Shown piece after piece: positions 539 to 21,368 of a stretch of 64,000 nt of DNA. The DNA comes from Burkholderiaceae bacterium (GTDB lineage: Bacteria > Pseudomonadota > Gammaproteobacteria > Burkholderiales > Burkholderiaceae_C). Each line of letters begins with the position of its first letter. Within the stretch, counting starts at the first letter, position 1. A model generated the notes under the pieces. It was not told where the DNA came from. It was given only the letters and a program-made list of their open reading frames with translations, and ran no database searches. The translations under genes were made by a program, and so were the position numbers. Location of the stretch: positions 7,669 to 71,668 of the forward strand of contig DATLIE010000368.1 of NCBI GenBank assembly GCA_035539635.1, read 5' to 3'.

Positions 539-1482
<944 letters not shown>

Positions 1483-1492
<10 letters not shown>

Positions 1493-1830: not shown

Positions 1831-1847
1831 GGGCCGGTCCCGGCGGA

Positions 1848-4773: not shown

Positions 4774-5051
4774 ACCACGGCCCGCGTCTTGTAGCTCTCG
4801 AGTTCGGCCTGCGCGTCGCCGAGTTCCTTGAGCAGTTGCAGCGTCAGCATCGCCTCGCGCTCGTCGACGCGGTTCATCGCGAAGCCCACGTGGACCAGCA
4901 CCCAGGCGCCGATGCACTCCTCGAGTGGCTCGCCTTCGCGAACGATGCAGGCGATGTTGATCTCGCGCTTGACGCCGAGCACATCCACCAAAGCGAGCTT
5001 GGCTTCGGGGCGCGTGATGGCCTCGATACGGCCCGGGATGCCTAGACACAT
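4770..5051 (-). CDS. hypC: Hydrogenase assembly chaperone HypC
   Basis: MCLGIPGRIEAI... N-terminus, 93 aa. Its start overlaps the hypF stop by 10 nt. Confidence 0.9.
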   Translation of the reverse strand: MCLGIPGRIEAITRPEAKLALVDVLGVKREINIACIVREGEPLEECIGAWVLVHVGFAMNRVDEREAMLTLQLLKELGDAQAELESYKTRAVV

Positions 5052-7471
5052 GGGGGCGTCTCCTGTCGTTGTTCGTTCTGGCTGGCGCGGGCCAGCGCAA
5101 TCAGCGCCTGGCCCCAGGCCAGCCCGCCGTCGTTCACCGGCACCTGGCGCGGCAGCAGGGCCTTCAGGCCCGCCGCCTCGAGCCCGCGCAGGACGAGCTC
5201 GGTGAGCACCTTGTTCTGGAACACGCCGCCGCCCAGGGCGACGGTTGTCAGCTCGTGACGTTCGGCCTCTTGCTGCGCCATGCGCACGATGACCGCTGCC
5301 AGCCCGCGGTGAAAGCGTGCAGCGATGCGGGCCGCGGGTGTGGCGAGAATCAGATCGCCGAGCAGGGCCTGCCACATGCCCAGCGGCTCGACATAGGGCA
5401 GGCCCTTGCCCTTGTCCAGGCGAGGGATCGCGAACGGGTAGTCGAGTTCGGCGCTCTCGTCGAGGTCTTGCGCGGTGACCAGCGACTCCAGGCGCATCGC
5501 CGCCTCGCCTTCGTAGGCCACCTGCTCGCGGCAGACGCCGATTGCGGCCGCCACCGCATCGAACAGGCGCCCGACGCTGCTGGCGCGTGGCGCCAGGGCC
5601 GGGTTGGCGAGCATCGCATCGAGCATCTCGCGCGGCTTGGCGCTCAGAAAGTGGTGCAGCTCCAACTCGTCGTAGTTGCTGGTGAAGCGCGGCCAACCCA
5701 TCTCGGCCATCAACTGCGCATAGGTGTTGCGCCAGGGCTCGCGTGCCGCCAGGTCGCCGCCCGGCAGGCACACCGGTTTGAAGGTGCCCACGCGTTGCGC
5801 CTGCCGGTAATCGGCGAGCAGGAACTCGCCGCCCCAGAAGCTGCCGTCCTCGCCCATGCCGATGCCGTCGAGCGCGATGCCGAGCACCTTGCCGCCGTGC
5901 AGCGGCCACCCGTGTTCGCCCAGGCACGCGGCGATGTGCGCATGGTGGTGACCGACGCCGACCTGTCGGTCGGGCCAGCGCTCCTGCGCGTGCTGCGTCG
6001 AGGCATAACCCGGGTGCAGATCGCAGGCAACGAGATCGGGCTCGAAGGCGTAGAACGCGAGGTAGTCGGCCAGCGCGCGCCGCTGGTCGGCCAAGCAGGC
6101 GGCGTCGTGCAGGTCGCCGATGTGCTGCGAGAGCACGCCTTGCCCGTCGCGCACCAGCGCGAAGGTATTCTTCAGGTCACCGCCGAGCGCCAGCACCTTG
6201 GTGCGGTGGTCGAAGCCCTTGGGCAGCGGCAGCGGCGCCGGGGCATAGCCACGCGCGCGCCGCATCACCCGCAAGGCACCGCCGACGACGCGCCCGACCG
6301 AGTCGTCCACCCGCCGCTGGATCGCACGGTCGTGGTCGAGCACCCACGCGATGGAGGGGCCCAGGCGGGCCGCAGCATCGTCCAGCCGGATCGCCTGCGG
6401 CTCTTCGCTCAGGTTGCCACTGGTCAGCACGATCGGCGCCTTGCGGCGCCGCATCAGCAGCAGGTGCAGCGCGGTGTTCGGCAGCATCACGCCGAGCGTG
6501 GGCAGGCCGGGTGCGACGCCGTCGGCCAGCGGTGCATCGGCGCGCCGCGGCAGCAGCACGATCGGCGCTGCCGGGCTGGCGAGCGCGGCTTCGGCCACGT
6601 CGTCGCTCAGGCACCACTGGCGCGCCATTTCGATGTCACGCACCAGCAACGCGAAGGGCTTGCCTTCGCGGCGCTTGAGTGCTCGCAACCGCGCTACCGC
6701 GTCGGCGCGTGTCGCGTCGCAAGCGATCTGGTAGCCGCCCAGGCCCTTGACCAGCACCAACTCGCCGCGGCCCAGCAACGAAGTGGCGCCATCCGCGTCG
6801 TCGAGCGCGGTCAAGGCCTCCAGGCTAAAGGGCTTGCCGTCGATCCGGCGCAACGTGGCGCGCGGGCCGCAGGCGTGGCAGGCCATTGCCTGGGCGTGGA
6901 AGCGCCGGTCGTCGGTGTCGGCGTACTCGCGCGCGCAGGCCGCGCACAGCGGGAAGGGCGCCATCGTCGTGTGCGCGCGGTCGTAGGGGGCGCGTTCGAA
7001 CACGCTGAGGCGCGGGCCGCAGGCGGTGCACGCGGTGAACGCATAGCGATAGCGGCGCGCGAAAGGATCCAGCGTCTCGGCGCAACACGCCGGGCAGATG
7101 GCCCAGTCGGGCGCCACGCCGAGGCCCGGCTGCGCCAGCGCGCTGTCGGCGATCGAGAACGTCGAAGGCAGCGCCGCCGGCACGGCGAGCGGCTGCGCGA
7201 GCAGTGCATCGATACGGGTGCCGCCGTGGTCGAGCGTGCGCAGGCGTTGCTCGAACTCGGCGAGCGCCGGCTCCGGGCCAAAGGCTTCGACGATGGCCAT
7301 CGTGCCTTCGTTGTGAACGCTGCCCACCACGCCGAGCGCGCGCGCCAGGCGCAGCGCCTGCGGTCGGAAGCCGACCCCCTGAACGATGCCGCGCACCTTC
7401 AAGCGTGCGCCGTACATCGGCGCCCCATGTGGTCGATCGGTCAGCGCTGTGGTCGTGGGCACAGCGCTCAT
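5042..7471 (-). CDS. hypF: Carbamoyltransferase HypF
   Basis: Acylphosphatase-like N-terminus (VRGIVQGVGFRP), two CxxC-x18-CxxC zinc fingers, and YrdC- and Kae1-like regions. The ATG overlaps the stop of the NHL gene (ATGA). Confidence 0.95.
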   Translation of the reverse strand: MSAVPTTTALTDRPHGAPMYGARLKVRGIVQGVGFRPQALRLARALGVVGSVHNEGTMAIVEAFGPEPALAEFEQRLRTLDHGGTRIDALLAQPLAVPAALPSTFSIADSALAQPGLGVAPDWAICPACCAETLDPFARRYRYAFTACTACGPRLSVFERAPYDRAHTTMAPFPLCAACAREYADTDDRRFHAQAMACHACGPRATLRRIDGKPFSLEALTALDDADGATSLLGRGELVLVKGLGGYQIACDATRADAVARLRALKRREGKPFALLVRDIEMARQWCLSDDVAEAALASPAAPIVLLPRRADAPLADGVAPGLPTLGVMLPNTALHLLLMRRRKAPIVLTSGNLSEEPQAIRLDDAAARLGPSIAWVLDHDRAIQRRVDDSVGRVVGGALRVMRRARGYAPAPLPLPKGFDHRTKVLALGGDLKNTFALVRDGQGVLSQHIGDLHDAACLADQRRALADYLAFYAFEPDLVACDLHPGYASTQHAQERWPDRQVGVGHHHAHIAACLGEHGWPLHGGKVLGIALDGIGMGEDGSFWGGEFLLADYRQAQRVGTFKPVCLPGGDLAAREPWRNTYAQLMAEMGWPRFTSNYDELELHHFLSAKPREMLDAMLANPALAPRASSVGRLFDAVAAAIGVCREQVAYEGEAAMRLESLVTAQDLDESAELDYPFAIPRLDKGKGLPYVEPLGMWQALLGDLILATPAARIAARFHRGLAAVIVRMAQQEAERHELTTVALGGGVFQNKVLTELVLRGLEAAGLKALLPRQVPVNDGGLAWGQALIALARASQNEQRQETPPCV

Positions 7472-8649
7472 CACGCGACGTCCCACAACAGGACGCGGTT
7501 GTTGCCTGAGTCGACGATGATCGCGGTGTTGCCTTGAATCGCGATGGCATACGGCCAGCACAGCGAGTCTCGGGTTGCCGCCTGCCAGCGGTTGTCGCCC
7601 TTGTCGACAAAACTGGCCTGCCCGGCCACCGCGCGCGCCTCGCGCTCGGCAGGCGCGTCCAAGCGCAGCACGCGCGAGTTGGCGGTATCGGCGACGAAGA
7701 GCCGGTCTTCATGCACCGCCAGGCCGTAAGGCATGTTCAGGCTGCGGGCGCTGGGAAAGTATTCGCCACGGTTGTGATCCAGCGCGTCGATCTCGCCCTG
7801 ACCAATGATGAGGTCGCTGCGCGCCATGTCGCTGTCCGGGTCGCCGAGCCACAGCAGCAGGCGGTTGTTGCCGGCATCGGCCACGCACAGATAGCCCTGC
7901 CACAGCGCCAGCGCATGCGGCCAGCGCATCGTGGCTTGCGTCACACCACCAGCGTTCTCGTCGCGGTGCACGAAGTCCGGCTGGCCGAGCACGAGGTTGG
8001 CGGGCTGCCCGTCACGCGCCGGCAGGCCGTCGAAGCGCAGCACGCGGCGGTTGCCGGTGTCGGCCACCCACAGGCGCGCACCGTCCCAGAACACGCCATA
8101 CGGCCAGTGCAGGGTGTCGGCCGCAGGCGTGTCGAGCCCGCGGTTGGCCAGCCCGGCGTGCGCATCGGCCTGGCCCAGCACCACGTCGGCCGGCTGCCGG
8201 CTGTGCCGCGGCGCGCGGCGCCAGATCAGCACGCGGTGGTTCCACGCGTCGGCGACCGCAAGGCCCTCGCCGCAGGCACACACGCCGGTGGGCACATTCA
8301 AGCTCGCGCCGCTGACCTCGGCATGCGCATTGCGGCCTTCGTGGTCGAAGCCGGGCTGTCCGATCACCCACGAAGCCGGTTCGCCGTCGCTGGTCGGCAC
8401 CGCCGGCCAGCCCAGCAGCCGGTGGTGACCCGTGTCGGCGACCCACAAGGCGCCGTCGGCGGTCACCGCGGCGCCGCGCGGTCCGAACAGGGTGTTCGCG
8501 GCCGGCGTCAGGGCCGCGCCGGACAGCGGGTCGTGCAGGCCGAGGATGACTCGCGCGCCGGCCGCGGCAAGCGCCGGCGCGGCGGCTGCGCGCTCGCGCG
8601 GCCGCGCGAGCGACACCTTGAGCGGCGCGGCAGCCAAGGTGCCGCTCAC
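7471..8649 (-). CDS. NHL-repeat beta-propeller protein (six blades)
   Basis: Six repeats of the type hWVADTGNxRVLxW (ALWVADTGHHRLLGW, LAVADAWNHRVLIW, LWVADTGNRRVLRF, LCVADAGNNRLLLW, LFVADTANSRVLRL, AIIVDSGNNRVLLW). The GTG start overlaps the upstream stop (GTGA). Confidence 0.8.
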   Translation of the reverse strand: MSGTLAAAPLKVSLARPRERAAAAPALAAAGARVILGLHDPLSGAALTPAANTLFGPRGAAVTADGALWVADTGHHRLLGWPAVPTSDGEPASWVIGQPGFDHEGRNAHAEVSGASLNVPTGVCACGEGLAVADAWNHRVLIWRRAPRHSRQPADVVLGQADAHAGLANRGLDTPAADTLHWPYGVFWDGARLWVADTGNRRVLRFDGLPARDGQPANLVLGQPDFVHRDENAGGVTQATMRWPHALALWQGYLCVADAGNNRLLLWLGDPDSDMARSDLIIGQGEIDALDHNRGEYFPSARSLNMPYGLAVHEDRLFVADTANSRVLRLDAPAEREARAVAGQASFVDKGDNRWQAATRDSLCWPYAIAIQGNTAIIVDSGNNRVLLWDVA

Positions 8650-9530
8650 GTCGGCGCTCCCAGCTTCACCGCGACGCGTCCGCCGCGCACGCGAACGGCG
8701 TGAACCACCAACTGCACCTCGGGCACGTCGAGGCATTCGCCGGTGTCCAGGCGGTAGCGGAAGCCGTGATGCGGGCACTCGATCACGCCATCACTGACGG
8801 CGCCGTCGTCCAGTGGCATGCCGAGGTGCGCGCAGGCGTTGGCCACGCAGAACACCTGCGAGCCGTCGCGGTACAGCAGCAAGGCCTCATCGCGCAGCGA
8901 ACGCGCCGCCACCTGGCCTTGCGGCAGTTCGTCCACGGCGCAAAGATCGACGAAGCCAAGATCCTCCGCCTTGGCGAAGGGGCTGACGAAGTGGATCGGC
9001 ACCGCTTCGCCGGGCGCCCGCGTTTCAGCCGAGCGCCGCACCTGGACGACTCGGACGATCTCCGGCGCGTGCTCCTTGATCGCACGCTCCACGCCTTCGG
9101 ACAGCGTCTGGCCCGATGCCGGACAGCTTTGGCAGCTGCCGGTCAAGCGCACCTCGACGGTGTCGGGCAGCTTGATCGCCACCAGCTCCACGCCGCCGGC
9201 ATGCTCAGCCAGCATCGGCGCCACCGATTCCAGCGCCGCGCGGACCCGCGCCTCGAGCGGCTCGCGCACCAGGCCATGCAGCCGCAGGACGCCATAGATG
9301 AACGGGTCCGACGCCAGCTCGCGCAGCCGGGCCGCGGCAGCCGGCTCTTCGCGCAGCCCTTTGAGCAGGCGCACGAGCGCCTCGCGGTGCAGGGCCTCGA
9401 TGGCGCCACGCAGGTTGTCGAGCACGGCGCGCTGCTCCAACGGCCAGGCCTGGCCGATGGCCTGAAGCGCCGCCACCTCGGTGGCCATGTGGGCCAGCCG
9501 CTCGCCGTCGTCGTGGGTCGCCGCGTTCAC
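8646..9530 (-). CDS. NifU-like domain fused to a Rieske-type [2Fe-2S] domain
   Basis: The central LTGSCQSCPASGQTL is the CxxC of the Nfu/NifU C-terminal type. The C-terminal CAHLGMPL-x-CPHHGFRY is the Rieske pattern CxH...CxxH. The start is uncertain: GTG at 9530 or ATG at 9488. Confidence 0.8.
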   Translation of the reverse strand: MNAATHDDGERLAHMATEVAALQAIGQAWPLEQRAVLDNLRGAIEALHREALVRLLKGLREEPAAAARLRELASDPFIYGVLRLHGLVREPLEARVRAALESVAPMLAEHAGGVELVAIKLPDTVEVRLTGSCQSCPASGQTLSEGVERAIKEHAPEIVRVVQVRRSAETRAPGEAVPIHFVSPFAKAEDLGFVDLCAVDELPQGQVAARSLRDEALLLYRDGSQVFCVANACAHLGMPLDDGAVSDGVIECPHHGFRYRLDTGECLDVPEVQLVVHAVRVRGGRVAVKLGAPT

Positions 9531-9550
9531 AGAGCTGCGCCTCGGGTTCG

Positions 9551-9769
9551 TCAGTTGTACTTGAGGTTGCGGAACAGCCACGGCATCAGCGCGCCGCCGA
9601 TGGCGCCACCGGCCACCATGCCGAGCCACGGGTTCACCCAGCCGAGCGCGAGCATCAGCAGTAGTGACACGGCAAAGCCGGCGCCGAGCTGGCGGAAGAA
9701 CGCCCAGTTGTCGCGGAACAGCTTGCCGCCGACGAACAGCTTGATCGAGTTGAGCAACATATCGAACAT
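9551..9769 (-). CDS. Small membrane protein (72 aa), unknown family
   Basis: AAGGAG lies 5 nt upstream of the ATG. The central segment is hydrophobic (FAVSLLLMLALGWVNPWLGMVAGGAIGGALMPWLF). Co-directional within the operon. Confidence 0.5.
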   Translation of the reverse strand: MFDMLLNSIKLFVGGKLFRDNWAFFRQLGAGFAVSLLLMLALGWVNPWLGMVAGGAIGGALMPWLFRNLKYN

Positions 9770-9788
9770 CGTTTGCTCCTTGCCGCGT

Positions 9789-9980
9789 TCAGCGCAAAGC
9801 GTGCATCAGCACGGCCACCACCGCGGCGGGGACCACTGCGGCGAGGCCGAAGAAGGCGCCCATGAAGGCGGCCATCTCGTTGCCCATCGCCTGGCCGCCG
9901 AGCTTCACCCCGGTTGCGGCGCCGCCTGCCGCGCCCGCCAGCACGGCGGCCAAGCACATCAATACGAGGGTCACAGTCAT
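9789..9980 (-). CDS. Small Gly/Ala-rich membrane protein (about 63 aa), unknown family
   Basis: MTVTLVLMCLAAVLAGAAGG...FFGLAAVVPAAVVAVLM. GGAG lies about 8 nt upstream of this internal ATG. The track ORF begins earlier, at 10040. Confidence 0.45.
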   Translation of the reverse strand: MTVTLVLMCLAAVLAGAAGGAATGVKLGGQAMGNEMAAFMGAFFGLAAVVPAAVVAVLMHALR

Positions 9981-10036
9981 CGTCTGCTCCATGTTGATCA
10001 ACGGTTCAATTGGTGGTCCTGAAGCCCGAGTTCTGG

Positions 10037-11095
10037 TCAATGCCCGGTGGGCCCGGCATCGCCGGGAACGCGTGAGGCGCCGAAGTCGGCGTGCGAGGCA
10101 TCGATGCCGGCGAGCGCGTCGGCCACTGTGGCCGCAGCATCGTCAAGGCCCGCGGACTGAAAGATTCGTTGCGCCTCCCGATACAACGCACGCGCCTTCG
10201 CGGTGTTGCCTGGGTTGCCCAGCTCGGGGTGCTCCGGGTCGTCCGGCAGGTTGAGCAGGGCATTGGCCTTGTTGGCCGCCGTGTTGGCGTACTCCACCGG
10301 CATGTCGCGCGGGTTGCGCACCTTCAAGGCCTCGTCATACGCCTCCACTGCACGCAGGAGGTTGGCCACCGGATGGCTGCTCGGAGCGTATTGCAGCGCA
10401 TTGCCGAGGTTGTTCTGCGTCATCGCGTACTCGCTGGGGTGGTCCACCAGCGTCACGATGCCAAGCACCTCCTCGAACGACTGCACGGCGAGCGCCTCGC
10501 GCATTCGCGCACGTTCGTCGGTGGCGGGGATCGAGAGGTAGGCGATCGCCAGGTTGTTGTGCAGGATCGAGAACTCGCGTGGCCAGGCTTGTTTGGTGAA
10601 CACGCGCAGGGCGCGGTGGTAGTGCGCGATCGCCTCCTGGATCGTCGCCCGGTGAGCAGCGCAAAGAGTCTGGGTCACCAGGCCCAGGTTCATGTCGAGT
10701 TCGGCCACCTCTTCGGCCAGGCCATGGGTGGCCAGGTCGGCGCGAGCGGCCTCGAAACAGTCGCGTGCCGATTCGAGTGCGGCGGTACCGCCATCGGGCA
10801 AGGTCTGGTAGGCGGTGCCCTGGCGGGCACGAATGCGTGCCGCCAGCAGCGCGAACGTGGGTGGCACCAGCGCCAGTGCACGCTCGTACAGCGCTACCGC
10901 GTCGTGCAACTGGCGCGGCGAGCGCGGCTTGATCTGCAGACCGCGGGCGATCTCCATCAGCATCTCGGCCCGTTCCTCGGGTGCGGCGTCGCCCTCCTCG
11001 GCCAAAGCCAGCGCCGATTGCACCTCGGCGTCGGCCACCGTGAAGTGGTCTCGACCATTCGGCCTGCCCGACTCAGGCCCCGTGCTTGTCTCCAT
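10037..11095 (-). CDS. TPR-like helical-repeat protein, first gene of the hyp operon
   Basis: Repeated A-x-x-x-Y-x-x-AL helical-pair pattern (AVALYERALAL, AIAHYHRALRV, AVEAYDEALKV, ARALYREAQRI). AAGGA precedes the ATG at 11093-11095. Confidence 0.65.
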   Translation of the reverse strand: METSTGPESGRPNGRDHFTVADAEVQSALALAEEGDAAPEERAEMLMEIARGLQIKPRSPRQLHDAVALYERALALVPPTFALLAARIRARQGTAYQTLPDGGTAALESARDCFEAARADLATHGLAEEVAELDMNLGLVTQTLCAAHRATIQEAIAHYHRALRVFTKQAWPREFSILHNNLAIAYLSIPATDERARMREALAVQSFEEVLGIVTLVDHPSEYAMTQNNLGNALQYAPSSHPVANLLRAVEAYDEALKVRNPRDMPVEYANTAANKANALLNLPDDPEHPELGNPGNTAKARALYREAQRIFQSAGLDDAAATVADALAGIDASHADFGASRVPGDAGPTGH

Positions 11096-11198
11096 CTTTG
11101 TCCTTGCTGGGCCGTGGGGCCCGTGGCTGGGATCTTCTTGCGAACTACCCCGAGAGCATCGGCGACGGGCTCGAGAACGTCTACTAGGTGCGCACCTA

Positions 11199-12010
11199 AT
11201 GAAAACCAAGTTTGCTACTCAGTCCGCTGGCTCGTTCGTTGGCGCATCGCGCGGTGCGGGCCAACTTGATTGGCGCTCAACCCCCGGTGACGGGGCCGAC
11301 CGGGGCCGTGCATTGCCTCAAAACCCAGACTGAAACGAGGACTTGCGAGCCTCTCATCGCTGCTTGCCTGAGTGGCGATCGCGGTTGGCATGAAGCGTGA
11401 CTAAGAGGTGAAGACCCATCCACGCCATCCTGGGCACCTGGGGTCAAGACCAGGAGACATTCGCATGGAGTCGTTCTACGAGGTGATGCGCCGCCAGGCT
11501 GCCACTCGCTGGCCAGCGTGCGCGCGGTCGAGGACGTGCCGGGCATCAAGATCCCGAAGAACGCGCACCTGATCCACGAGACGATGGCCATGACGCTGCA
11601 GGTGCACGACCACGCGGTGCACTTCTAGCACCTGCACGCGCTGGACTGGGTCGACGTCGTCAACGCGCTGAAGGTCGATCCCAAGAAGTCAAGCGACCTG
11701 CAGCACCTGCTGTCGCCTTCGCATTCGATGTCCAGCCCCGGCTACTCCCGCGATACCCAGAACCGGCTCAAGAAGTTCTTCGACTCCGGTCAGCTCGGTC
11801 CTATCACTGGGGCAGCAAATCCTGTGCGCTGCCGCCCGGGCCAAGCTGGTGGCGGCGACGCATTACCTCGAGGCACCGGACCTACAGAAGGAGTGGGTCA
11901 AGATACACACCATCTTCGGCGGCAAGAACTCGCAACCCAACTACCTGGTGAGCGGCGTGCCTTGCGCGATCAACGGCATGGGGTCGTGGGCCGAAAAGCT
12001 GTTCGGCTAG
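11199..12010 (+). pseudogene. [NiFe]-hydrogenase large subunit (HoxG/HupL/HyaB-like) remnant covering only about the N-terminal 40%
   Basis: Own three-frame reading gives MKTKFATQ..., [52 protein letters not shown] with TAG at 11626-11628 where Tyr is expected. It continues [23 protein letters not shown]. After a frameshift it reads [45 protein letters not shown]. There are several frame changes. No C-terminal half and no small-subunit gene upstream. Confidence 0.85.
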
Positions 12011-12040
12011 GTGACTCCGCTGCACGGCCAGTCGCAGGAC

Positions 12041-12182
12041 GGGCACACCTTCCACCACTCGGCATGTGGGTGCTGATCGGGTTCGTGATCTTCCACGTCT
12101 ACGCCGCGATCCGCGAAGACATCATGGACCGCCAGATCATCTCAGCACGATCATCTCCGGCCGCCGCACGTTCAAGGACTGA
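12041..12182 (+). pseudogene. Hydrogenase cytochrome b subunit (HoxZ/HupC-like) C-terminal remnant
   Basis: [26 protein letters not shown] followed, after a frameshift, by [12 protein letters not shown]. This matches my recollection of HupC/HoxZ C-termini. Nothing of the first ~200 codons remains. Confidence 0.7.
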
Positions 12183-12239
12183 CGCGATGACGCTGCGCGC
12201 CCGCCTCACCATTGGCAGCCATGCCCGGGGGCAGCGGTG

Positions 12240-12579
12240 AACCGCAGCACCAGCCAACTGCAGCAGGCGCTGATGAACCTGGTCCAGAACGCCTACGACG
12301 CGGCTGCCGGCCCGGGCCGGGAGCAGCCGCAGTTGTGGATCGAGGTGCGGATCGAAGGCGCGTCGCTGATCGTCGCGCTGCGCGAACGGGCCAGGGACTC
12401 CGGCGCCGGACCTGGCGCGCATCTTCGACCCCTTCTTCACCACCACCGGTCGACAAGGGCACGGGTTCGGACTGTCGATTAGCTACGGCATCGTCGAGCA
12501 GCATGGCGGCGGGCTCGTCGCGGGCGCCGCGCCGGGCGGCGGCGCAGTCTTCGCAATCACGCTGCCTCTGGCTTCCTGA
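12240..12579 (+). pseudogene. Histidine kinase HATPase_c tail (possibly HoxJ/HupT-like), frameshifted and lacking the DHp/H-box
   Basis: N-box LQQALMNLVQNAYDAA and a degraded G1 region (RDSGAGP). After a frameshift: [48 protein letters not shown]. Confidence 0.75.
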
Positions 12580-12671
12580 GTGTCCCCGCTACGCAGTGTC
12601 AGCCGCGCCACCGCTTCCTGCGGCTCAAGGTGCGGCAGTTGCGTCGGCCGAAGCGTTGTCGCTCCAAAACT

Positions 12672-13955
12672 CTACAACTTCCAGAGTCGGCACCACCATT
12701 GCGGCTCGACCGGGACCGGCAGCTCGGGCAGGTCGCACCACTTCCGGTGCGGCAGGTAGTAGATGCACTCGGCGCAACGCTGTTCGACGCCACCCATCTC
12801 AACTGGCCGCGGCGCAAAGCCGCCGATGTCCAGGCGTCCCATGAGATCCTCTTCCGGAAGATCCGCGAGGCGGTCGAGAATGGCTTGGAACTCGACCTGA
12901 TTGGCCGGGAACGGCGACATCTGAGTCGCCATTCCCGAGGCCAGCAGTTCCCCGATGCGCATGCGCAGCAGGTTCAGCGCAACGCGATCCATCGCCGTCC
13001 AATCCAGTGCCGGGTTGCCGCGCGGGGGCTTGACGACCATCAGCACTTCGCGTTCGTCGAACGGTATGCGCAGGGCAGGGTAATACGGCACACGCAGAAG
13101 ATAGACCTCTCGACGCCCGATCTGCATTCGTGCCTTGCCGATGGCGCCCGGTTCGAGCCCGTACTGTTCAGCGATCGGTGCCAACGCCAGCCGGCCTTCG
13201 AAGGTCGCCGAGATTGCGCCCGCGAGCAAGGCCGATCGCGGCGCGGCGATGCCGCATCCGGCGCGCCGGTAGCTGGCGGCATGCGATTGCGCGCTCAGGT
13301 CGAACAGATCCGCGGCCAGGATCCGCTCGTCGATGTCGCAGGAAGCATGCAACAAGCTCGAAGAGCCTTCGGGCGCGCCTTGTGGTTGAGTCACTTTGCC
13401 GCCCGCGGGCTCGTGAGCGTGTGAATGCCCATGCCACGCCGCGATCAGCTTGCTCCAGAGGGACATGCTGTGCTGAGCGGGCTGCGGCCTGTTTGGATTC
13501 GTGCTCGCGCGGGTCTTGCGAACGCTCTGCAGGCGCGTGTGCACACCCCGGGCATGGACGATCGAGTCCAGCGCTGCGACGGACGCCGGAGCGTGGCGCA
13601 CGACAAGGCACAGGGCTTCCGTCGAGCCGGGCAGCCGGCTCAGTACAAGGTCGTGCTGTGGCAGCAGCAGCGACGCCGAGGTGACTCCACCGTTGGCGTC
13701 GCACTCAGCCGCGATCCGGCCGACTTCGGCGCCGATGCTGCGACCGAGCAGCGCGCGAGCAAGCATCGGCAGCAGGCTGGCATCGATGCCGAGGGCCTGA
13801 CCGGAAGCCTTTGGCGAGTCGCCGAGGGTCAGCGCCCGGCCGGTGCTGAGGTTGACCAGTGCCACCATGCCCTGGCCTTCGGTTCCGGCGATCAGCGGTG
13901 CAAGCTCCCGAGCGAGTTCGCGGCGGGGTGGAACAACACCAGCGGGAACGTTCAT
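12672..13955 (-). CDS. Hypothetical 427-aa protein with a C-terminal HiPIP-like four-cysteine signature
   Basis: GAAGGA lies about 7 nt upstream of the ATG at 13953-13955. The C-terminus is RCAECIYYLPHRKWCDLPELPVPVEPQWWCRLWKL. There is a His-rich linker (WHGHSHAHE). The N-terminal ~150 aa vaguely resemble Roadblock/LC7. No signal peptide. Confidence 0.5.
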   Translation of the reverse strand: MNVPAGVVPPRRELARELAPLIAGTEGQGMVALVNLSTGRALTLGDSPKASGQALGIDASLLPMLARALLGRSIGAEVGRIAAECDANGGVTSASLLLPQHDLVLSRLPGSTEALCLVVRHAPASVAALDSIVHARGVHTRLQSVRKTRASTNPNRPQPAQHSMSLWSKLIAAWHGHSHAHEPAGGKVTQPQGAPEGSSSLLHASCDIDERILAADLFDLSAQSHAASYRRAGCGIAAPRSALLAGAISATFEGRLALAPIAEQYGLEPGAIGKARMQIGRREVYLLRVPYYPALRIPFDEREVLMVVKPPRGNPALDWTAMDRVALNLLRMRIGELLASGMATQMSPFPANQVEFQAILDRLADLPEEDLMGRLDIGGFAPRPVEMGGVEQRCAECIYYLPHRKWCDLPELPVPVEPQWWCRLWKL

Positions 13956-14223
13956 CGGGGCATCCTTCAAGTTGCTTGGAGCGGTTGACGGGTCGATGGC
14001 GGGCATGGACGTTCGCAATGTGCGTGCCCGGGTGCCGGGTGCCTTGTGTCCTGCTCGTGATCTCCGTGATCAAGCGATGCAGCGCCTGCATTTGTGCACC
14101 TACCGTCACGAAGTTGGCCTCGCTACCTTCAGCGCATGCGCAATTGGCGTCGGTTCAACTGCAAAGGGACTTTGCGACACGGCCAACTCCTAAACTGTCT
14201 TTGCAGCGAGCGCATCGGTCTAA

Positions 14224-14483
14224 GTGACCTTGCAATCGGCCATGAATCCGGCGCGTCAACTGCCACACGCCCCACAGCACTGGCGGCATCGCGGCGCCGG
14301 CGGCGAGTTCAGAGTGGATGGGGACCCCCGCCGCGTTGGCCGCTTTGCCCCCATACAGCAGGAGGCTGACTGCGTAATAAGTGATGGCCGCGATCGCCAC
14401 AGCCCCTCGACCGTGCTCTGCAGGTGCAGGCGGATCGTTGCACCCGTTGCTGCAGACGTGCAGCTCGATAGGCCTGCCGGCAA
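14224..14483 (-). pseudogene. DUF3422-like membrane-anchored protein, C-terminal remnant with a frameshift
   Basis: RLHLQSTVEGL reads in one frame. It continues in another frame as AVAIAAITYYAVSLLLYGGKAANAAGVPIHSELAAGAAMPPVLWGVWQLTRRIHG. This matches my recollection of DUF3422 C-termini. No N-terminal part is present. Confidence 0.45.
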
Positions 14484-14603
14484 TGGTGTCGCACAGGCGC
14501 GTCCTCGAGCCGCATTGCGCGATCAGCAGCGGTAGCACCGCCCGCGCCGCCGCCGCCTCCGCCGGCGCCGACACGCCGGTGCCGAAGCGCCGGCGCTAGA
14601 ACA

Positions 14604-15248
14604 TCAGAAGCGATACCCGACACCCAAGCCGACCAGCACGGGGTCGACCTTGAGAGTGGAGAGCTTCGAGCCGCCCGACTTCAAGTCGGTACGGATCCAT
14701 GCCTTCTTGACGTCGATGTTCAAGGACCACGGGCCGCCGAGGCCGATGTCCAGCCCCGCCTGCAGGGCCGACCCGAAGCTGTTGCGGTCGAGGGTGAGCG
14801 GCCCGGTCGTGGCGTTGCCCAGCTTGACGCTGGACAGGTTCGTGTAGTTGATGCCAGCGCCGACGTAGGGACGGAACTGCCCGTCGGGGAGGAAGTGCCA
14901 CTGCACGGTCAGCGTGGGGGGCAGGGCCTTGAAAGACCCGGCATCGAATGCACCGACCGCGCTCGAAGTGACCCGCGCATCGAGCTTGGTGAAGGCCAGC
15001 ACCAGTTCGGCAGCGATCTGCTTGGTGAAGAAGTACGAGATGTCGAGCTCGGGAACCCACTTGTCCTTGACGTGAATGGCGTCCGCTGGAACGGCCAGCG
15101 AGGGAACGGGGCTGGACTTGTTCGCCGGGTCGATGTGCAGTGCGCGCACGCGAACCAGCCAGGGGCCGGTCTGCGCGTGAGCGGTCGCGGTGCCGAGCAT
15201 GGGGGCGAGGGCGAGGGCGGCGAGTGCCAGAGTTTTGGCGAGGGTCAT
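14604..15248 (-). CDS. ompW: OmpW-family outer membrane protein
   Basis: Signal peptide MTLAKTLALAALALAPMLGTATAHA, then PYVGAGINYT and the C-terminal ...VGLGVGYRF beta-barrel signature. Confidence 0.85.
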   Translation of the reverse strand: MTLAKTLALAALALAPMLGTATAHAQTGPWLVRVRALHIDPANKSSPVPSLAVPADAIHVKDKWVPELDISYFFTKQIAAELVLAFTKLDARVTSSAVGAFDAGSFKALPPTLTVQWHFLPDGQFRPYVGAGINYTNLSSVKLGNATTGPLTLDRNSFGSALQAGLDIGLGGPWSLNIDVKKAWIRTDLKSGGSKLSTLKVDPVLVGLGVGYRF

Positions 15249-15723
15249 GAGGAAAGTCTCCAAAGAGTTGTTGTCGGTCGTGGCCGAAGGCTGCGTCATG
15301 TGCGCAAGGCCAATCGGCGGGTGGGTGGCAGCGGCGCAAACGCTGTTTGCACCCAGGACATTGCGACGCAAGAAGTGCGCCCCCGCGAACGCCATGTGGC
15401 TCCCGCAGCTCCGAATGCCGGGCGCTAGGATCGATAGCGGTGATGTGGATCATCGCCGTCGGTACTGCCGATCAAAGGTGAAGTGCCTGAACGCCGTCGA
15501 CCCTGCCGAGCCGGCACAGGTGGGCGCGGTGGTGCGCGAACAGCCCGACCGTGACGACGCCGGGCCAACGGTTGATCTCACAGTCTCAAGGGCGGGAACA
15601 ACACCAGCTGCAGGGGGTTCAGGCGCGCCATGCGCCGTCGGCACTCGCCGGCGCCACCACCTGCACGCCGGCCAGGCTGCCGTTCGTCTCTAGGTGTCGG
15701 CCACGAGGCAGTTGCGGCGTCGG

Positions 15724-16719
15724 CTATCCATAGCGCAGCTCCGTCGCCTTGCCGCCGAACACGCGGTACGAGTAGATGGTGTAGGCGACGATTGCCGGCA
15801 CGGAGATGCACACGCCGACGAGCGTTACCTTCAGCGTGGCCGGGCTGCTGGCGGCCTGCCACATCGTCAGCTTGTCGATGACGACGTAGGGATAGATGCT
15901 GTAGGCCAGGCCGACGAAGCCGAGTATGAACACGGCGATCAACAGCACGAACGGCAGCCAGCACAACTCGCCGCGCACTAGGCGCGTCGGCAGCGCGCGG
16001 CGCAACACCAGCAGCGCGACCGTGGTGGTGGCGGGAATCACCACCAACGCGATGATCTGCGGCAGCTCGAACCAGCGCTCGCGCACCGTGGTGCTGATCC
16101 AGGGCGTGGCCATCGAGATCAGCACCATGCCCAGCACCACCGGCCACCAGGCCTGCCGTGCCCAGACGATGGCCTTAACTTGCAGCCCGTGCTCGGTCTT
16201 CATTACGAGCCAGGTCGCGCCCAGCAGCACGTAAGCCGCCGGCAATGTCAGCGCGATGGCGGCTGCGAACAGTGGGTAGTTCCAGCCTTCGCCGAAGCCG
16301 CTGATGTAGCGCCCCAGCATCCAGCCTTGCATCATCGACGCGAGCAAGGAGCCGCCGAAGAAGAGCCGGTTCCACGCCGCCTTGTGGCTGTCGTGCGCCT
16401 TGACGCGGAAGTCGAAGGCCACGCCGCGCAACACCAGGCCGACCAGCATCAGGGTCACGGGCAGGTAGAGCTCGGTCAAGATCAGGCCATGGGCTTTCGG
16501 GAAGGCGATCAGCAGGATGCCCACGCCGAGCACGATCCAGGTTTCATTGGCGTCCCAGAACGGCCCGATCGAGGCCACCATGATGTCCTTCTCGGCGTCG
16601 GTCGCGCGCGGCAGTAGCATGCCCACGCCCAGGTCGTAACCGTCGCTGAGCACATAGACAAGCATCGACAGGCCCATCAGGACGATGAAGATCAACGGCA
16701 GGGCTTGGTCGAAGCTCAT
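15724..16719 (-). CDS. cydB: Cytochrome bd-type quinol oxidase subunit II (short, CIO-like)
   Basis: MSFDQALPLIFIVLMGLSMLVYVLSDGYDLGVGML... and FWDANETW. The ATG overlaps the cydA stop (ATGA). Confidence 0.9.
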   Translation of the reverse strand: MSFDQALPLIFIVLMGLSMLVYVLSDGYDLGVGMLLPRATDAEKDIMVASIGPFWDANETWIVLGVGILLIAFPKAHGLILTELYLPVTLMLVGLVLRGVAFDFRVKAHDSHKAAWNRLFFGGSLLASMMQGWMLGRYISGFGEGWNYPLFAAAIALTLPAAYVLLGATWLVMKTEHGLQVKAIVWARQAWWPVVLGMVLISMATPWISTTVRERWFELPQIIALVVIPATTTVALLVLRRALPTRLVRGELCWLPFVLLIAVFILGFVGLAYSIYPYVVIDKLTMWQAASSPATLKVTLVGVCISVPAIVAYTIYSYRVFGGKATELRYG

Positions 16720-18101
16720 CGCGGCTCGCCCCCGGGGGCAGGGAACATGGCGGCGGCGGCCGGCGCGCCGCGCGGGGCGGGGATGGCCGGCGAAGTGTCC
16801 TCGGGCTTTTCGGCCATGTGCTTCAGAACGACCACGTAGGCGACGAGCAAGGCCAGGTACAGCGTCACGTAGATCGCCAGCGTGAACGCAATCATCGAGC
16901 CGGGCACGTTCGAGGCCACATCGGCCACGCGCAGCACGCTGTGGACGATGAATGGTTGGCGACCAATCTCGGTGACGTACCAACCCGCGACCGTGGCCAT
17001 CCAGCCCGAGAACGTCATGCCCACGAGAACCCAGAGCAGCGGCCGCGTCCATGCGGCGGCCCGCCAGCCGGCGCGGTGCCCCATCCACCAACCCACCCAG
17101 CTCACCAGCAGCATCAGCATGCCGACACCAACCATGATGCGGAACGCCCAGAACACCGGCGCCACGGGCGGGTGCCGATCGCGGAACTCGTCGAGGCCCC
17201 TGATCTCGCCGTCCCACTCGTGCGTGAGGATGAGGCTGGCCCCTTTGGGAATGCCGACCTCGTAGCGGTTGCTGCGTGTGGCCGCGTCGGGCCAGGCAAA
17301 CAGCAGCAGCGGCGCACCGCGCTCGGTCTGCCATATGCCTTCCATCGCCGCCACCTTCTGCGGCTGATGCTTGAGCGTGTTCAAGCCGTGCAGATCACCG
17401 ACGAACATCTGAACTGGGATCAGCAGTGCCGCACAGGTGACGCCGACGCGCAGCACGCGCGGAGCCATCTCCGGAGTCGAACCGCGCAGCACCTGCCATG
17501 CGCTCACGCCCGCCAGCACGAAGGCACAGGTCAACCCCGAAGCCAGCAGCACGTGGGCGAAGCGGTAGGGGAACGAGGGGTTGAGGATGATCCCGGCCCA
17601 GCTCTTGACGTGGAACACGCCCTCAACGATCTCGTGCCCGGCGGGCGTCTGCATCCACGAGTTGAGCACCAGGATCCAGAATGCGCTCACAGTGGTGCCG
17701 AAAGCGACGAAGAAGGTCGCGAAGGCATGGACGCGCTCGCTCACGCGCCCGTGACCGAAAAGCATGATGCCGAGGAAGCCCGCTTCCAGGAAGAAGGCGG
17801 TCAGCACCTCGTAGCCCAGCAGTGGGCCGGCGACGTTGCCGGCGCGCTCCATGAAACCGGGCCAGTTTGTGCCGAACTGGAAGCTCATCGTCACGCCGCT
17901 GACCACGCCCAGTGCGAAGGTCAGCGCGAACACCTTGGTCCAGAAGCGGTAGGCCGCCAGCCAAGCGGTGTGCTGCGTCCGGCGCCAGCGCCAGCGGAAG
18001 AACATCAGCAACCAGCCCAGCGCGATGGTGATCGACGGGAACAGGATGTGGAAGGTGATGTTGGCTGCGAACTGCGCACGTGCCAGAAGGAGCGGGTCCA
18101 T
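16716..18101 (-). CDS. cydA: Cytochrome bd-type quinol oxidase subunit I (short Q-loop, CIO-like)
   Basis: MDPLLLARAQFAANITFHILFPSITIALG..., GYEVLTAFFLEAGFLGIM. 461 aa, shorter than E. coli-type CydA. Confidence 0.9.
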   Translation of the reverse strand: MDPLLLARAQFAANITFHILFPSITIALGWLLMFFRWRWRRTQHTAWLAAYRFWTKVFALTFALGVVSGVTMSFQFGTNWPGFMERAGNVAGPLLGYEVLTAFFLEAGFLGIMLFGHGRVSERVHAFATFFVAFGTTVSAFWILVLNSWMQTPAGHEIVEGVFHVKSWAGIILNPSFPYRFAHVLLASGLTCAFVLAGVSAWQVLRGSTPEMAPRVLRVGVTCAALLIPVQMFVGDLHGLNTLKHQPQKVAAMEGIWQTERGAPLLLFAWPDAATRSNRYEVGIPKGASLILTHEWDGEIRGLDEFRDRHPPVAPVFWAFRIMVGVGMLMLLVSWVGWWMGHRAGWRAAAWTRPLLWVLVGMTFSGWMATVAGWYVTEIGRQPFIVHSVLRVADVASNVPGSMIAFTLAIYVTLYLALLVAYVVVLKHMAEKPEDTSPAIPAPRGAPAAAAMFPAPGGEPR

Positions 18102-18212
18102 CGAATGGATCGAGTGGGGTTCGGTTGTGAGGCGCGGGCTGAAATCACACCGTCGCGATGCGCATCAGGTTCGTCGCGTTGCGGTGACGGCGCATGCTGG
18201 GACGCTCACGCT

Positions 18213-19250
18213 TCAGGCGTAGCGGGCCGACATGGCCTCGAGCGGCAGCGGCTTGATGCGCGCCCCTTGGCCGGCGCAGCCGAAGGCCTCGAAGCGCGCC
18301 TTGACCACGGCGTGCGCGGCCTTCTTCGCGGCCTGCAATGCCTTGCGCGGGTCGAATTCGCTGGGCTGCTCGGCGAACGCCTGGCGCATGGCGGCGGTCA
18401 TCGCCAGCCGGATGTCGGTGTCGATGTTGATCTTGCGCACGCCGCTCTTGATGCCGCGCTGGATCTCCTCGACCGGCACGCCGTAGGTCTCCTTGATGTC
18501 GCCGCCGTATTTGCGGATGACCGCCAGCCACTCCTGTGGCACGCTGGACGAGCCGTGCATCACCAGGTGCGTGTTCGGCACCGCGGCGTGGATCTGCGCG
18601 ATGCGCTCGATGGCCAGGATGTCGCCGGTGGGCTTGCGGGTGAACTTGTAGGCGCCGTGACTGGTGCCGATGGCGATGGCCAGCGCATCGACGCCGGTGC
18701 GGGCGACGAAGTCCTTCGCCTCGTCGGGGTTGGTGAGCATCATGTCGTGCGTGAGCTTGCCCGCGGCGCCCACGCCGTCCTCCTCGCCGGCCTCACCGGT
18801 TTCGAGCGAGCCCAGGCAGCCGAGTTCGCCTTCGACCGAGACACCGATCGAGTGAGCCATCTCGCAGACCTTGCGCGTGACCTCGATGTTGTAGTCGTAG
18901 CTCGCGGGCGTCTTCGCGTCTTCGAGCAGCGAGCCGTCCATCATCACGCTGGTGAAGCCCGAGCGGATCGACTGTTGGCACACCGCCGGCGAGGCGCCAT
19001 GGTCCTGGTGCAGCACGATCGGGATGTCTGGATGCATCTCCACGGCCGCCAGCACCAAGTGGCGCAGGTAGGGCTCGCCGGCGTACTTGCGAGCGCCGGC
19101 CGAGGCTTGCAGGATCACCGGCGACTGCGTTTCCTGCGCCGCTTCCATGATCGCGTGGACCTGCTCGAGGTTGTTGACGTTGAAGGCGGGCACGCCGTAG
19201 CCGCATTCGGCGGCGTGGTCGAGCACTTGGCGCAGTGAGACGAGGGCCAT
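18213..19250 (-). CDS. fba: Class II fructose-1,6-bisphosphate aldolase
   Basis: [30 protein letters not shown]..., [15 protein letters not shown]. Confidence 0.95.
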
Positions 19251-19363
19251 GGGGTTCTCCGGGGAAGTCGTTGAGCGGGCGAGAAGTCGGTGGGATGCCG
19301 GCGGCGGGCTGGACTAAGGTGGAGGTCTTTCATGATTCAGGGCGCTGCCCGGCGTCACGAAAT

Positions 19364-20164
19364 CTAGGGGTAGTCGCTGATCGTGTCGCGTTGCGTGAAC
19401 CAGTCGGCGATATCGGCCAGGCGGACGCGGTCACCCTGGCCAGCACTTGGCCGCGGCGAGCGAGCAGCCGACGCAGGGCGCCAGCCTTCGCGCGTGTGCA
19501 GACCCGGCCCGACGGCGATGGCGCCCTCGACAGAGGACTGGGCAAAGTAGAAGCTGCGGGTGACGATGACCGGGCAATCGGCGGCACGCGCCGCCGCCAC
19601 GCCGCCCGGCGAGTCCTCGAGAGCAACGGCCTCGAGCGGGCCGACGCCCAGCGCCTGAATGGCCGTGACGAAGACCTCGGGGTCGGGCTTCTTGCGCTGC
19701 ACGTCCTCGCCGCAGACGATGGCGCCGAACCAGGCGGCCCAGCGCTCGCCCATGTGCTTGCGCAGCAACGCCTCCAAGTTGGAGCGGCTCGTTGTCGTGG
19801 CGACGGCCATGCGCACGCCGTGGTCACGGCACTCGCGCATCAGCTCGAGCACGCCGCCGCGCAGCGGGATGCCGATGCCGGCGACCAGTTCGGCATACAG
19901 GGTGTTCTTCTTCGCGTGCAGCGCACGCGCCAGCGTGTCGCGCTCGCCGGCCAACGGCGGTGCGTCGGACCGGCTATCCATGTCGTGCATCAGGCGTTCT
20001 CGACCGCCGGTGACCTGCAAGAGTTGCCCATAGCGGGCATCGTCCCAGCGCCAGGGCAGCCCGAAGGCCTCGAAGGCGAGGTTGAACGCAACCCGATGCC
20101 CGTCGCGCTCGGTCTCGGCGAGCGTGCCGTCGACATCCCAGAGGAGTGCCTTGAGCTTGCTCAT
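19364..20164 (-). CDS. HAD-superfamily phosphatase (CbbY-like)
   Basis: LLWDVDGTLAETE (DxDGT motif), then KKPDPEVF and ALEDSPGG. Lies between pgk and fba. Confidence 0.8.
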   Translation of the reverse strand: MSKLKALLWDVDGTLAETERDGHRVAFNLAFEAFGLPWRWDDARYGQLLQVTGGRERLMHDMDSRSDAPPLAGERDTLARALHAKKNTLYAELVAGIGIPLRGGVLELMRECRDHGVRMAVATTTSRSNLEALLRKHMGERWAAWFGAIVCGEDVQRKKPDPEVFVTAIQALGVGPLEAVALEDSPGGVAAARAADCPVIVTRSFYFAQSSVEGAIAVGPGLHTREGWRPASAARSPRPSAGQGDRVRLADIADWFTQRDTISDYP

Positions 20165-20177
20165 GCGCGGAGTTCCG

Positions 20178-21368
20178 TCACTGCGCGCGCTTCGCGAGGA
20201 TCTCGAAGGCCGGCAGCGTCTTGCCTTCGAGCACCTCGAGGAAGGCGCCGCCGCCGGTGGAGATGTAGCCCACGTCCTTCTCGATGCCGTACTTGGCGAT
20301 CGCGGCCAGGGTGTCGCCGCCGCCGGCAATCGAGAACGCATCACTTGCTGCGATCGCGCGCGCAATCGTTTCGGTGCCATTCGCGAACGCATCGAACTCG
20401 AACACGCCCACCGGGCCGTTCCAGACGATGGTGCCGGCGGCCTTGAGCTGGTCGGCGAGCAGCGCCGCGGTCTTGGGGCCGATGTCGAGGATCAGGTCGT
20501 CGGGAGCCACGTCGGTGGCCGCCTTGACGGTCGCCTTCGCGTCGGCCTTGAACTCCTTGGCACACACCAAGTCGACCGGGATCGGCACCGCGGCGCCGCG
20601 CGCGGCCATCGCCTCGATCACGGCCTTGGCCTCCTTGACGAGGTCGGGCTCGGCCAGGCTCTTGCCGATGGGCAACCCTTGCGCGAGCAGGAAAGTGTTG
20701 GCGATGCCGCCGCCGACCACCAAACCGTCGACCTTGGCCGCCAAGCTCTGCAGGATCGTCAGCTTGGTGCTGACCTTGGAGCCAGCGACGATGGCCACCA
20801 GCGGCCGCTTCGGGTGCGCGAGCGCCTTCGTGATCGCATCGATCTCGGCCGCCAGCAGCGGGCCGGCACAGGCGATCTTGGCGAACTGCGCGATGCCGTA
20901 GGTGCTGGCCTCGGCGCGGTGCGCGGTGCCGAAGGCGTCGTGCACGAAGATGTCGGTCAGCGCCGCCATCTTCTTCGCCAATTCCTCGTTGTTCTTCTTC
21001 TCGCCCTTGTTGAGGCGGCAGTTCTCCAGCAGCACCACCTCGCCGGGCTGAACGGCCACGCCATCGACCCAGTTCGACCGAAGCGGCACGGGGCAGCCGA
21101 GCAATTCGCTCAACCGAGCGGCCACCGGCGCCAGAGAGTCCTCGGGCTTGAACTCGCCTTCGGTCGGACGTCCGAGGTGCGAAGTGACCATCACCGCCGC
21201 GCCGGCGTCGAGCGCCATGCGGATGCAGGGCACCGAGGCGCGGATGCGCGTGTCCTCGGTGATGTGCCCGGCGTCGTCCTGCGGCACGTTGAGGTCGGCA
21301 CGGATGAAGACGCGCTGGCCGCGCACGCGGCCCTGCGCAACGAGATCGGAGAAGCGGAGGACGTTCAT
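20178..21368 (-). CDS. pgk: Phosphoglycerate kinase
   Basis: [17 protein letters not shown], and GGGDTLAAI near the C-terminus. Confidence 0.95.

Follow-up and report, generated by a model that had tools for sequence, protein, structure and literature searches.

The group 2a [NiFe]-hydrogenases allow aerobic bacteria to live on the trace H2 of soil, sea, and air. In Mycobacterium, the enzyme Huc reduces menaquinone through HucM. We know of no established route by which electrons leave the cytoplasmic group 2a enzymes of Proteobacteria, Acidobacteriota, and other lineages, for which HucE is the only candidate discussed. High-potential iron-sulfur proteins (HiPIPs) are small periplasmic proteins with a twin-arginine translocation (Tat) signal. 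Here we examine a 64,000-nucleotide stretch from a Burkholderiaceae bacterium (contig DATLIE010000368.1; the window, below, means this whole stretch) and a 427-residue protein encoded on its minus strand, at 12672 to 13955, whose tail carries four cysteines in a HiPIP-like arrangement. This protein is a real, conserved member of an unannotated family, and the ~95-residue module that forms its tail is a portable, conserved unit. We give even odds that the protein is accessory to a group 2a (Huc/HupSL-type) [NiFe]-hydrogenase system in the cytoplasm, in which it would act as a redox adaptor or relay with a putative cluster.

HucE and HhyE, which combine NifU and Rieske domains and belong to group 2a and group 1h operons, are putative iron-sulfur (Fe-S) proteins of the same loci as the module, and a HucE-like gene lies 3 kb downstream of our target in the window. 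A cytochrome b subunit is missing from the Huc and Hhy operons of mycobacteria, for which HucE and HhyE are the sole acceptors proposed; both have been suggested to accept electrons from, or to help assemble, hydrogenases devoid of a cytochrome b (PMC6883350). In sequence and cluster type they are unrelated to the module and, unlike the module family, they have genetic evidence of a requirement for H2 oxidation. Mycobacterial Huc also uses HucM, a scaffold or stalk that, like the module genes, is an extra, lineage-specific small gene adjoining the hucSL genes of a group 2a enzyme (PMC10017518). HucM, however, is encoded upstream of hucS and forms a coiled-coil, lipid-lined tube, for which the same study describes no Cys site or metal cluster (PMC10017518); none of the surveyed module loci showed HucM.

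The module family thus stands beside HucE as a second candidate for the partner to which group 2a hydrogenases hand over their electrons, and it occurs in cultured H2-oxidizing strains (Sphingopyxis alaskensis RB2256 and Litorivivens lipolytica). If this reading is true, the HiPIP site would extend from small periplasmic carriers to cytoplasmic multidomain proteins. To judge from a remote HiPIP likeness, what we describe is a variant of a familiar type of site, placed in an architecture and a context that are new.

A conserved family with a portable four-cysteine module

The reading frame of the target runs on the minus strand from an ATG at 13955 to a stop codon at 12672 to 12674, with a Shine-Dalgarno-like GAAGGA (13963 to 13968, minus strand) 7 nucleotides before the ATG. 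An alternative TTG start would give 448 residues; the homologues all align from the ATG of the 427-residue form. The last 35 residues are RCAECIYYLPHRKWCDLPELPVPVEPQWWCRLWKL, and within the tail, QRCAECIYYLPHRKWCDLPELPVPVEPQWWCRLWKL, the cysteines fall at residues 394, 397, 407, and 422, a spacing of C-x2-C-x9-C-x14-C. No Tat or Sec-like N-terminus was found in the window protein, whose residues 11 to 22 form a helix in the first folded domain. An initial annotation, made from the DNA letters alone, had proposed this frame, a good Shine-Dalgarno sequence, the four-cysteine spacing, and the absence of a signal peptide, and on all of these points it was correct.

The same annotation called the protein an orphan, which the homology searches overturn. 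A word-indexed search returned 95 clusters (at 90% identity), all unnamed or labeled "hypothetical," and when 1.84 billion representatives were searched exhaustively with a profile, 147 matched (as 50% identity representatives). The 95 clusters contain no Pfam domain save in one cytochrome b fusion, and Pfam and NCBIfam scans of the window protein, 36 full-length relatives, and 26 modules yielded nothing above threshold. Full-length homologues share 38 to 81% identity with the window protein over 94 to 100% of its length; seven of them (P0002 to P0008) reach 64 to 81% at 100% coverage. Searches of Protein Data Bank (PDB) sequences with the window protein, the module profile, and a profile of the first domain gave non-significant matches only, the top one being to the Cys-containing C-terminal part of 2gvi_A (E value of 0.26 to 0.6), a "conserved hypothetical protein" that we take to be FwdE-like with a Zn ribbon.

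Among 224 retrieved proteins, 163 carry the pattern C-x2-C-x(7-12)-C-x(12-16)-C-x2-[FWY]; the exact 9/14 spacing is kept in 159 of these 163, and in 160 the protein ends two residues past the motif, while the remaining 61 proteins, which lack it, are metagenome fragments with visible truncations or frameshifts. In an alignment of 36 sequences with 24 to 81% identity to the window protein, the four tail cysteines (C394, C397, C407, and C422) are invariant, together with E396, I398, Y399, W406, D408, P410, L412, P413, P415, V416, W420, and W425; the four cysteines outside the tail are not conserved. The tail motif is far beyond chance. Against the relative at locus L001, residues 341 to 427 are 91% identical and the remainder 60%.

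These data leave almost no room for a spurious high-GC open reading frame (ORF) or a pseudogene. Such an origin could be argued from the gene fragments in the flanking DNA and from the Hydrogenophaga relatives, whose copy is cut to 111 residues; it is refuted by the conservation of full-length homologues, and the better-conserved tail, a confident AlphaFold2 (AF2) model, and the Shine-Dalgarno sequence stand against it too. The shortened copies occur in Curvibacter (L013), Hydrogenophaga (L014 and L016), and Burkholderiales/Pseudomonadota metagenome-assembled genomes (MAGs; L015 and L017), at ~10013 to 10348, where the target is reduced to its last 111 residues and the module is intact, at 91% identity to window residues 341 to 427. 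They are either pseudogenes or secondarily standalone modules. An unrelated 306-residue ORF lies just upstream of the copy in L014.

We took a census of gene neighborhoods by running tblastn over 54 species-level genome loci and fetching their flanks. Hydrogenase or accessory genes were present in the fetched flank of 46 of the 54. The commonest layout (~26 loci, mostly Alphaproteobacteria) encodes the small subunit (320 residues), the large subunit (531 residues), two standalone modules that we term modA (~107 residues) and modB (~104 residues), a protease, a TPR protein, two small genes, the NifU-Rieske protein HucE, an NHL protein, and hypF, so that the modA-modB pair sits between the large subunit and the protease. 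Plasmids of cultured strains, including S. alaskensis RB2256, have the same layout, with both module genes annotated "hypothetical protein"; the enzyme of the S. alaskensis plasmid belongs to group 2a and oxidizes atmospheric H2 (PMC10305171). The module of the window protein is of the modA type, identical to S. alaskensis modA at 54 of 99 positions versus 41 of 98 for modB. The window protein is a modA-type copy extended at its N terminus, an arrangement that we call the long form.

The long form is found in three settings. Its gene follows the large subunit, behind a gene for an Arf-like GTPase, in Acidobacteriota, Thermoanaerobaculia, Polyangiaceae, and a "Deltaproteobacteria" MAG, and it is only with a ~365-residue subclade of long forms that such a GTPase shares the operon. 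The Litorivivens copy is placed between hypE and hypA-hypB, and in Beta- and Gammaproteobacteria, the window included, the gene heads an operon that runs from the TPR gene to hypB. The hydrogenase small subunits start without a Tat signal; the enzyme is therefore cytoplasmic and lies on the same side of the membrane as the module. The module is also found fused to a Ni_hydr_CYTB-type cytochrome b (P0093 and P0131), one of these fusions adjoining a cytochrome c gene, and, away from hydrogenase genes, to an unrelated domain of ~130 residues. Its occurrence outside hydrogenase loci with other N-terminal domains is as expected for a cofactor module, and its fusions to a cytochrome b argue for redox chemistry.

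The literature that we consulted on HiPIPs with group 1h hydrogenases, on HiPIPs with uptake hydrogenases or hupL, on PHG067, and on Roadblock domains with hydrogenases contains no description of the module. A survey of group 2a loci mentions only "hypothetical proteins" (PMC7784904). The extended hyp operon of cyanobacteria has five ORFs. Two of these encode small proteins with putative transmembrane regions, and the others encode TPR, NifU-like, and NHL proteins (PMC3126725); the module is none of them.

Single loci depart from these layouts. In a Kangiella MAG (L043, 10001 to 11011), the large subunit is followed by three standalone module genes in tandem and not by two, and a Gallionellaceae locus (L011, 4510 to 7177) has a small-subunit gene, a 40-residue module remnant, and a long form with no large subunit between them, and appears decayed. 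Five loci from Acidobacteriota, Thermoanaerobaculia, and Polyangiaceae (L004, L006, L019, L020, and L025; ~3900 to 10000) carry two small-subunit paralogues (~79% identical) in divergent operons with one large subunit, and their Arf-like GTPases are large, at 575 to 809 residues; in L004, a second GTPase paralogue of 529 residues follows the long form.

HiPIP likeness and domain architecture

The initial annotation read the tail as a near-perfect HiPIP signature. We compared the module with HiPIPs through a profile (A5) built from PDB-verified sequences and PF01355 proteins. In hhalign, the module profile matched A5 with a score of 30.3 (P value of 9.2e-5; probability, 59%), placing C394, C397, C407, and C422 on C43, C46, C63, and C77 of the C. 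vinosum HiPIP and the WWC..W of the module on the GWC..W of the HiPIPs. By comparison, 300 column-shuffled HiPIP profiles scored 9.9 ± 2.4 (maximum, 19.6), the reversed profile scored 12.4, and rubredoxin and 2x[4Fe-4S] ferredoxin controls gave background scores. Taken singly, five of seven HiPIPs aligned all four cysteines with the module independently (P values of 3e-4 to 8e-3). HIPIP is also the only Pfam family matched by more than one module sequence, with 2 of 26 sequences and a best E value of 0.1, which is below threshold; the window protein itself has no Pfam match at an E value of 10 or less. AF2 modeled the module alone with a predicted local distance difference test (pLDDT) score of 93, and Foldseek returned only two matches to that model, the top one being the HiPIP 3h31, a weak match with an E value of 1.8 and template modeling (TM) scores of 0.39/0.49.

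The x2/x9/x14 spacing fits the pattern expected of HiPIP ligands, C-x2-C-x(8-16)-C-x(13-15)-C; an aromatic residue follows the CxxC, and the last cysteine stands in [LIVM]-x3-x-[YW]-C-x2-W. Measured against the HiPIP signature as we presume it to be, C-x(6,9)-[LIVM]-x(3)-G-[YW]-C-x(2)-[FYW], the module deviates at one position, where Gly is replaced by Trp420 (WWC), just as the initial annotation had reported; the other positions fit. This Gly is invariant in the A5 alignment, and in the modB paralogues Trp-Ser precedes the last cysteine. The module differs from HiPIPs in other respects as well. The window protein is cytoplasmic and carries no Tat signal, and the standalone module paralogues also start without a signal peptide; the site, with a cluster that is putative here, is the tail of a 95-residue helical module itself joined to other domains; and the genes for the module belong to hydrogenase loci and do not accompany photosynthetic or bc1-type partners. 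The tail resembles HiPIPs specifically and non-randomly, although remotely. This profile similarity, with the four cysteines in register, upholds the initial HiPIP-like reading as a remote but specific likeness, with Pfam matches that are subthreshold. Because the invariant Gly is replaced and the similarity is remote, we do not file the window protein as a member of the HiPIP family.

The AF2 model of the full protein, computed with the family alignment, had a pLDDT of 85 and a predicted TM score of 0.83. DSSP assignment of this model finds the order alpha-beta-beta-alpha-beta-beta-beta-alpha twice, in domain 1 (approximately residues 11 to 152; 13500 to 13925, minus strand) and in domain 2 (approximately residues 196 to 339; 12939 to 13370, minus strand). 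The two domains align in hhalign with a probability of 94% (E value of 1e-7; 115 columns) and are therefore homologous, so that the ~200-residue middle region, which the initial annotation had left unassigned, is a duplicate of the N-terminal domain. Between them lies the sole long low-confidence stretch of the model (approximately residues 153 to 195; 13371 to 13499, minus strand), which holds the WHGHSHAHE segment (residues 174 to 182; 13410 to 13436). The His-rich linker noted initially is thus present; across the 36-sequence alignment, however, WHGHSHAHE is unconserved, and for that reason a role for it as a Ni-binding element was dropped. The portable module follows, with a helical front half (approximately residues 340 to 391; 12783 to 12938, minus strand) marked in the alignment and the module model by PFPxT, EFxxI, and DLxGRLxIGGF, and then the HiPIP-like four-cysteine subdomain (residues 392 to 427; 12675 to 12782, minus strand), whose Cys codons are at 12774 to 12776, 12765 to 12767, 12735 to 12737, and 12690 to 12692.

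The N-terminal domain had been called vaguely Roadblock/LC7-like, and the predicted order of the fold agrees. The full model gave no Foldseek match below an E value of 1e-3, and its weak matches include ~10 Roadblock/LC7 structures (p14/MP1, Ragulator, and Streptomyces and Asgard Roadblocks) with E values of 0.08 to 0.8; matches to beta-lactamase, PBP, and PAS-GAF-PHY structures were discarded for TM scores below 0.2 over the query. Two copies of such a domain could form a pseudo-dimer, and in one subclade of long forms a GTPase gene shares the operon, which would be further points of likeness to Roadblock/LC7 proteins such as MglB, LAMTOR2/3, and bacterial Robl. Sequence comparison, by contrast, yields no Roadblock match by Pfam in 36 family members, none in PDB sequence searches with the domain 1 profile, and only background hhalign scores for both domains against LAMTOR2 and DYNLRB1, and the Foldseek E values are all at least 0.04. 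Because Pfam, PDB sequence, and hhalign comparisons give no Roadblock signal, we use "Roadblock-like" as a statement about predicted topology only.

A candidate redox adaptor and its rivals

As a redox adaptor of a group 2a hydrogenase, the protein would bind one [4Fe-4S] cluster in its tail, shielded by Tyr and Trp in the style of HiPIPs; the module would dock on the hydrogenase and relay electrons at high potential to the Rieske-type HucE or to the membrane. Group 2a enzymes themselves lack a cytochrome b subunit. The tandem Roadblock-like platform of the long form would tether the redox module to a partner protein and so make of it an adaptor, not a free carrier. The initial suggestion of a cytoplasmic multidomain "redox sensor or electron-transfer adaptor" is consistent with the genomic context that we describe, and its cofactor side is putative. 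Several observations weigh against a redox adaptor. In the G-[YW]-C signature, Gly has given way to Trp, the Roadblock assignment lacks sequence support, and the 64-kb window holds no hydrogenase subunit gene. The long forms of the window and of Litorivivens, moreover, sit in accessory/hyp operons and not beside the structural genes, a placement that fits a function in maturation equally well.

A maturation helper is accordingly the rival that we take most seriously, although we consider it doubtful. Here the module would bind an Fe-S or Fe center and serve the assembly of the small-subunit clusters or of the active site in air, with the long form as an assembly chaperone, by analogy with HoxR and HupI of the O2-tolerant membrane-bound hydrogenases. 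The target heads the TPR/NifU-Rieske/NHL/hypFCDEB operon of the window, the Litorivivens long form is flanked by hypE and hypA-hypB, modA and modB directly precede the maturation protease gene, and the cyanobacterial counterpart genes are cotranscribed with hyp genes and have been proposed to act in small-subunit maturation (PMC3126725). A dedicated chaperone, however, would not be expected to be fused to a quinone-type cytochrome b or to occur outside hydrogenase loci. Nor is the module among the five accessory ORFs described for cyanobacterial group 2a loci (PMC3126725), and it is therefore not a universal maturation requirement. The analogy itself is limited: the rubredoxin-type HoxR and HupI are, like the module, small Cys4 metalloproteins in hydrogenase operons of aerobes, but they share no sequence similarity with it (the rubredoxin control scored at background) and have two CxxC knuckles, a different Cys pattern, whereas the module resembles HiPIPs and not rubredoxin.

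It is unlikely that the four cysteines form a structural site for Zn2+ and that the protein serves the hydrogenase complex as a scaffold or oligomerization factor, functioning like HucM and taking no part in redox chemistry. Cys4 sites often bind Zn, the weak PDB match to 2gvi_A would point the same way if that protein does have a Zn ribbon, and HucM demonstrates that group 2a enzymes do use non-redox scaffolds (PMC10017518). Yet a CxxC followed by two single cysteines with invariant flanking aromatics is HiPIP-like and does not amount to two Zn knuckles, the 2gvi match is non-significant, and the cytochrome b fusions indicate redox chemistry. We also think it quite improbable that the protein is a signaling adaptor, in which the Fe-S tail would sense the redox state of the hydrogenase or the cell and the tandem Roadblock-like platform would regulate a small GTPase in the style of MglB or Ragulator, for regulation and not for energy conservation. 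The operons of Acidobacteriota, Thermoanaerobaculia, Polyangiaceae, and the "Deltaproteobacteria" MAG, in which an Arf-like GTPase (575 to 809 residues), the small subunit, the large subunit, and the long form follow one another, sometimes with a second GTPase paralogue, suggest such a function, and tandem homologous alpha/beta domains would mimic a GTPase-binding Roadblock dimer. On the other hand, HypB is the only GTPase encoded close to the window gene and to its relatives in Beta- and Gammaproteobacteria, the Roadblock fold is putative, and the GTPase-bearing loci have a maturation protease and the full accessory set, as for catalytic enzymes. In its most specific form, to which we assign a similarly small likelihood, the long form would serve a G protein as a redox-gated adaptor: the electron output of the group 2a enzyme would be read by a HiPIP-like cluster, and the tandem Roadblock-like pseudo-dimer would switch the Arf/Ras-like GTPase of the same operon, the window copy having lost, or working without, a dedicated GTPase. 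If true, this would be an H2/redox signaling route of a kind undescribed in bacteria.

Surroundings of the target in the window

The initial annotation saw in the target the only intact reading frame amid a hydrogenase graveyard, a description that does not extend to the operon that the target heads. The downstream TPR-like, HucE-like, NHL, and hypF, hypC, hypD, hypE, and hypB genes are intact ORFs, and fragments occur only in the immediate flanks, so that the "graveyard" is local to these flanks. We take the operon genes in order from the target, all on the minus strand. The next intact gene downstream encodes the TPR-like accessory protein (10037 to 11209 as the longest ORF, the true start being probably later), a conserved neighbor in relatives; it has no Pfam match in the window, and its L006 orthologue has faint TPR matches. 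Two small membrane-protein genes (9789 to 10040 and 9551 to 9769, together spanning 9551 to 10040) are counterparts of the two small cyanobacterial ORFs (PMC3126725), and they are followed by the HucE-like gene (8646 to 9629), with its Pfam NifU and Rieske domains (PMC6883350), and by the NHL-repeat gene (7471 to 8778). The hyp genes occupy 539 to 7561, with hypF at 5042 to 7561, hypC at ~4770 to 5051, a SIS-domain (sugar isomerase-like) gene at ~4036 to 4773, hypD at ~2900 to 4039, hypE at 1848 to 2903, and hypB at 539 to 1753.

The gap between hypE and hypB (1753 to 1848) is only ~95 nucleotides, and there is therefore no hypA between them; in some relatives (L005 and L059), hypA adjoins hypB. 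The SIS-domain gene is kept between hypC and hypD not only in the window (~4036 to 4773, minus strand) but also in L001 (18634 to 19371), L059 (6449 to 7102), and L068 (16691 to 17335). We know of no role in hydrogenase maturation assigned to it.

A tblastn search of the 64-kb window found no genes for hydrogenase subunits, the protease, or a GTPase, and scanning the surroundings of the target for promoters and terminators was uninformative. In close relatives, whose hyp genes are 89 to 98% identical, the large subunit, modA, modB, and protease genes lie ~3 kb beyond hypB and convergent with it; since hypB ends at 539, that position would fall immediately outside the window, on its left.

Between the target and the TPR gene, on the plus strand, lie the C terminus of a cytochrome b (11728 to 12240), of which only the last ~30 residues of Ni_hydr_CYTB remain, and, back to back with it, a histidine-kinase ATPase (HATPase_c) fragment (12237 to 12482). 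The stretch with both fragments measures ~1.17 kb and is absent from relatives, and the fragments (11728 to 12482) resemble what is left of a hoxZ/hoxJ-like region that was inserted between the two genes. On the other side, upstream of the target, a C-terminal remnant of a DUF3422 gene (14155 to 14574, minus strand) marks a deletion: at 13956 to 14603, ~1.5 kb is missing relative to L001 and L014, and with it most of the DUF3422 gene and a gene for a 184-residue protein. On the S. alaskensis plasmid (L068, 2850 to 4115), an intact DUF3422 gene adjoins the hydrogenase cluster, and DUF3422 may be part of the conserved neighborhood.

Farther upstream, the minus strand of the window (14604 to 21368) encodes OmpW, subunits II and I of a cytochrome bd oxidase, a class II fructose-bisphosphate aldolase, an HAD phosphatase, and phosphoglycerate kinase. 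At this place L001 also has pyruvate kinase, TIM, and ribose-5-phosphate isomerase, which were unseen among the Pfam-scanned window ORFs; the OmpW and cytochrome bd ORFs were confirmed by Pfam for the L001 orthologues. Beside the acidobacterial hydrogenase locus of L006, an operon at 11401 to 17620 encodes UQ_con (E2-like), Prok-RING, FHA, JAB, ThiF (E1-like), and YukD (ubiquitin-like) proteins and is a bacterial ubiquitin-like conjugation system.

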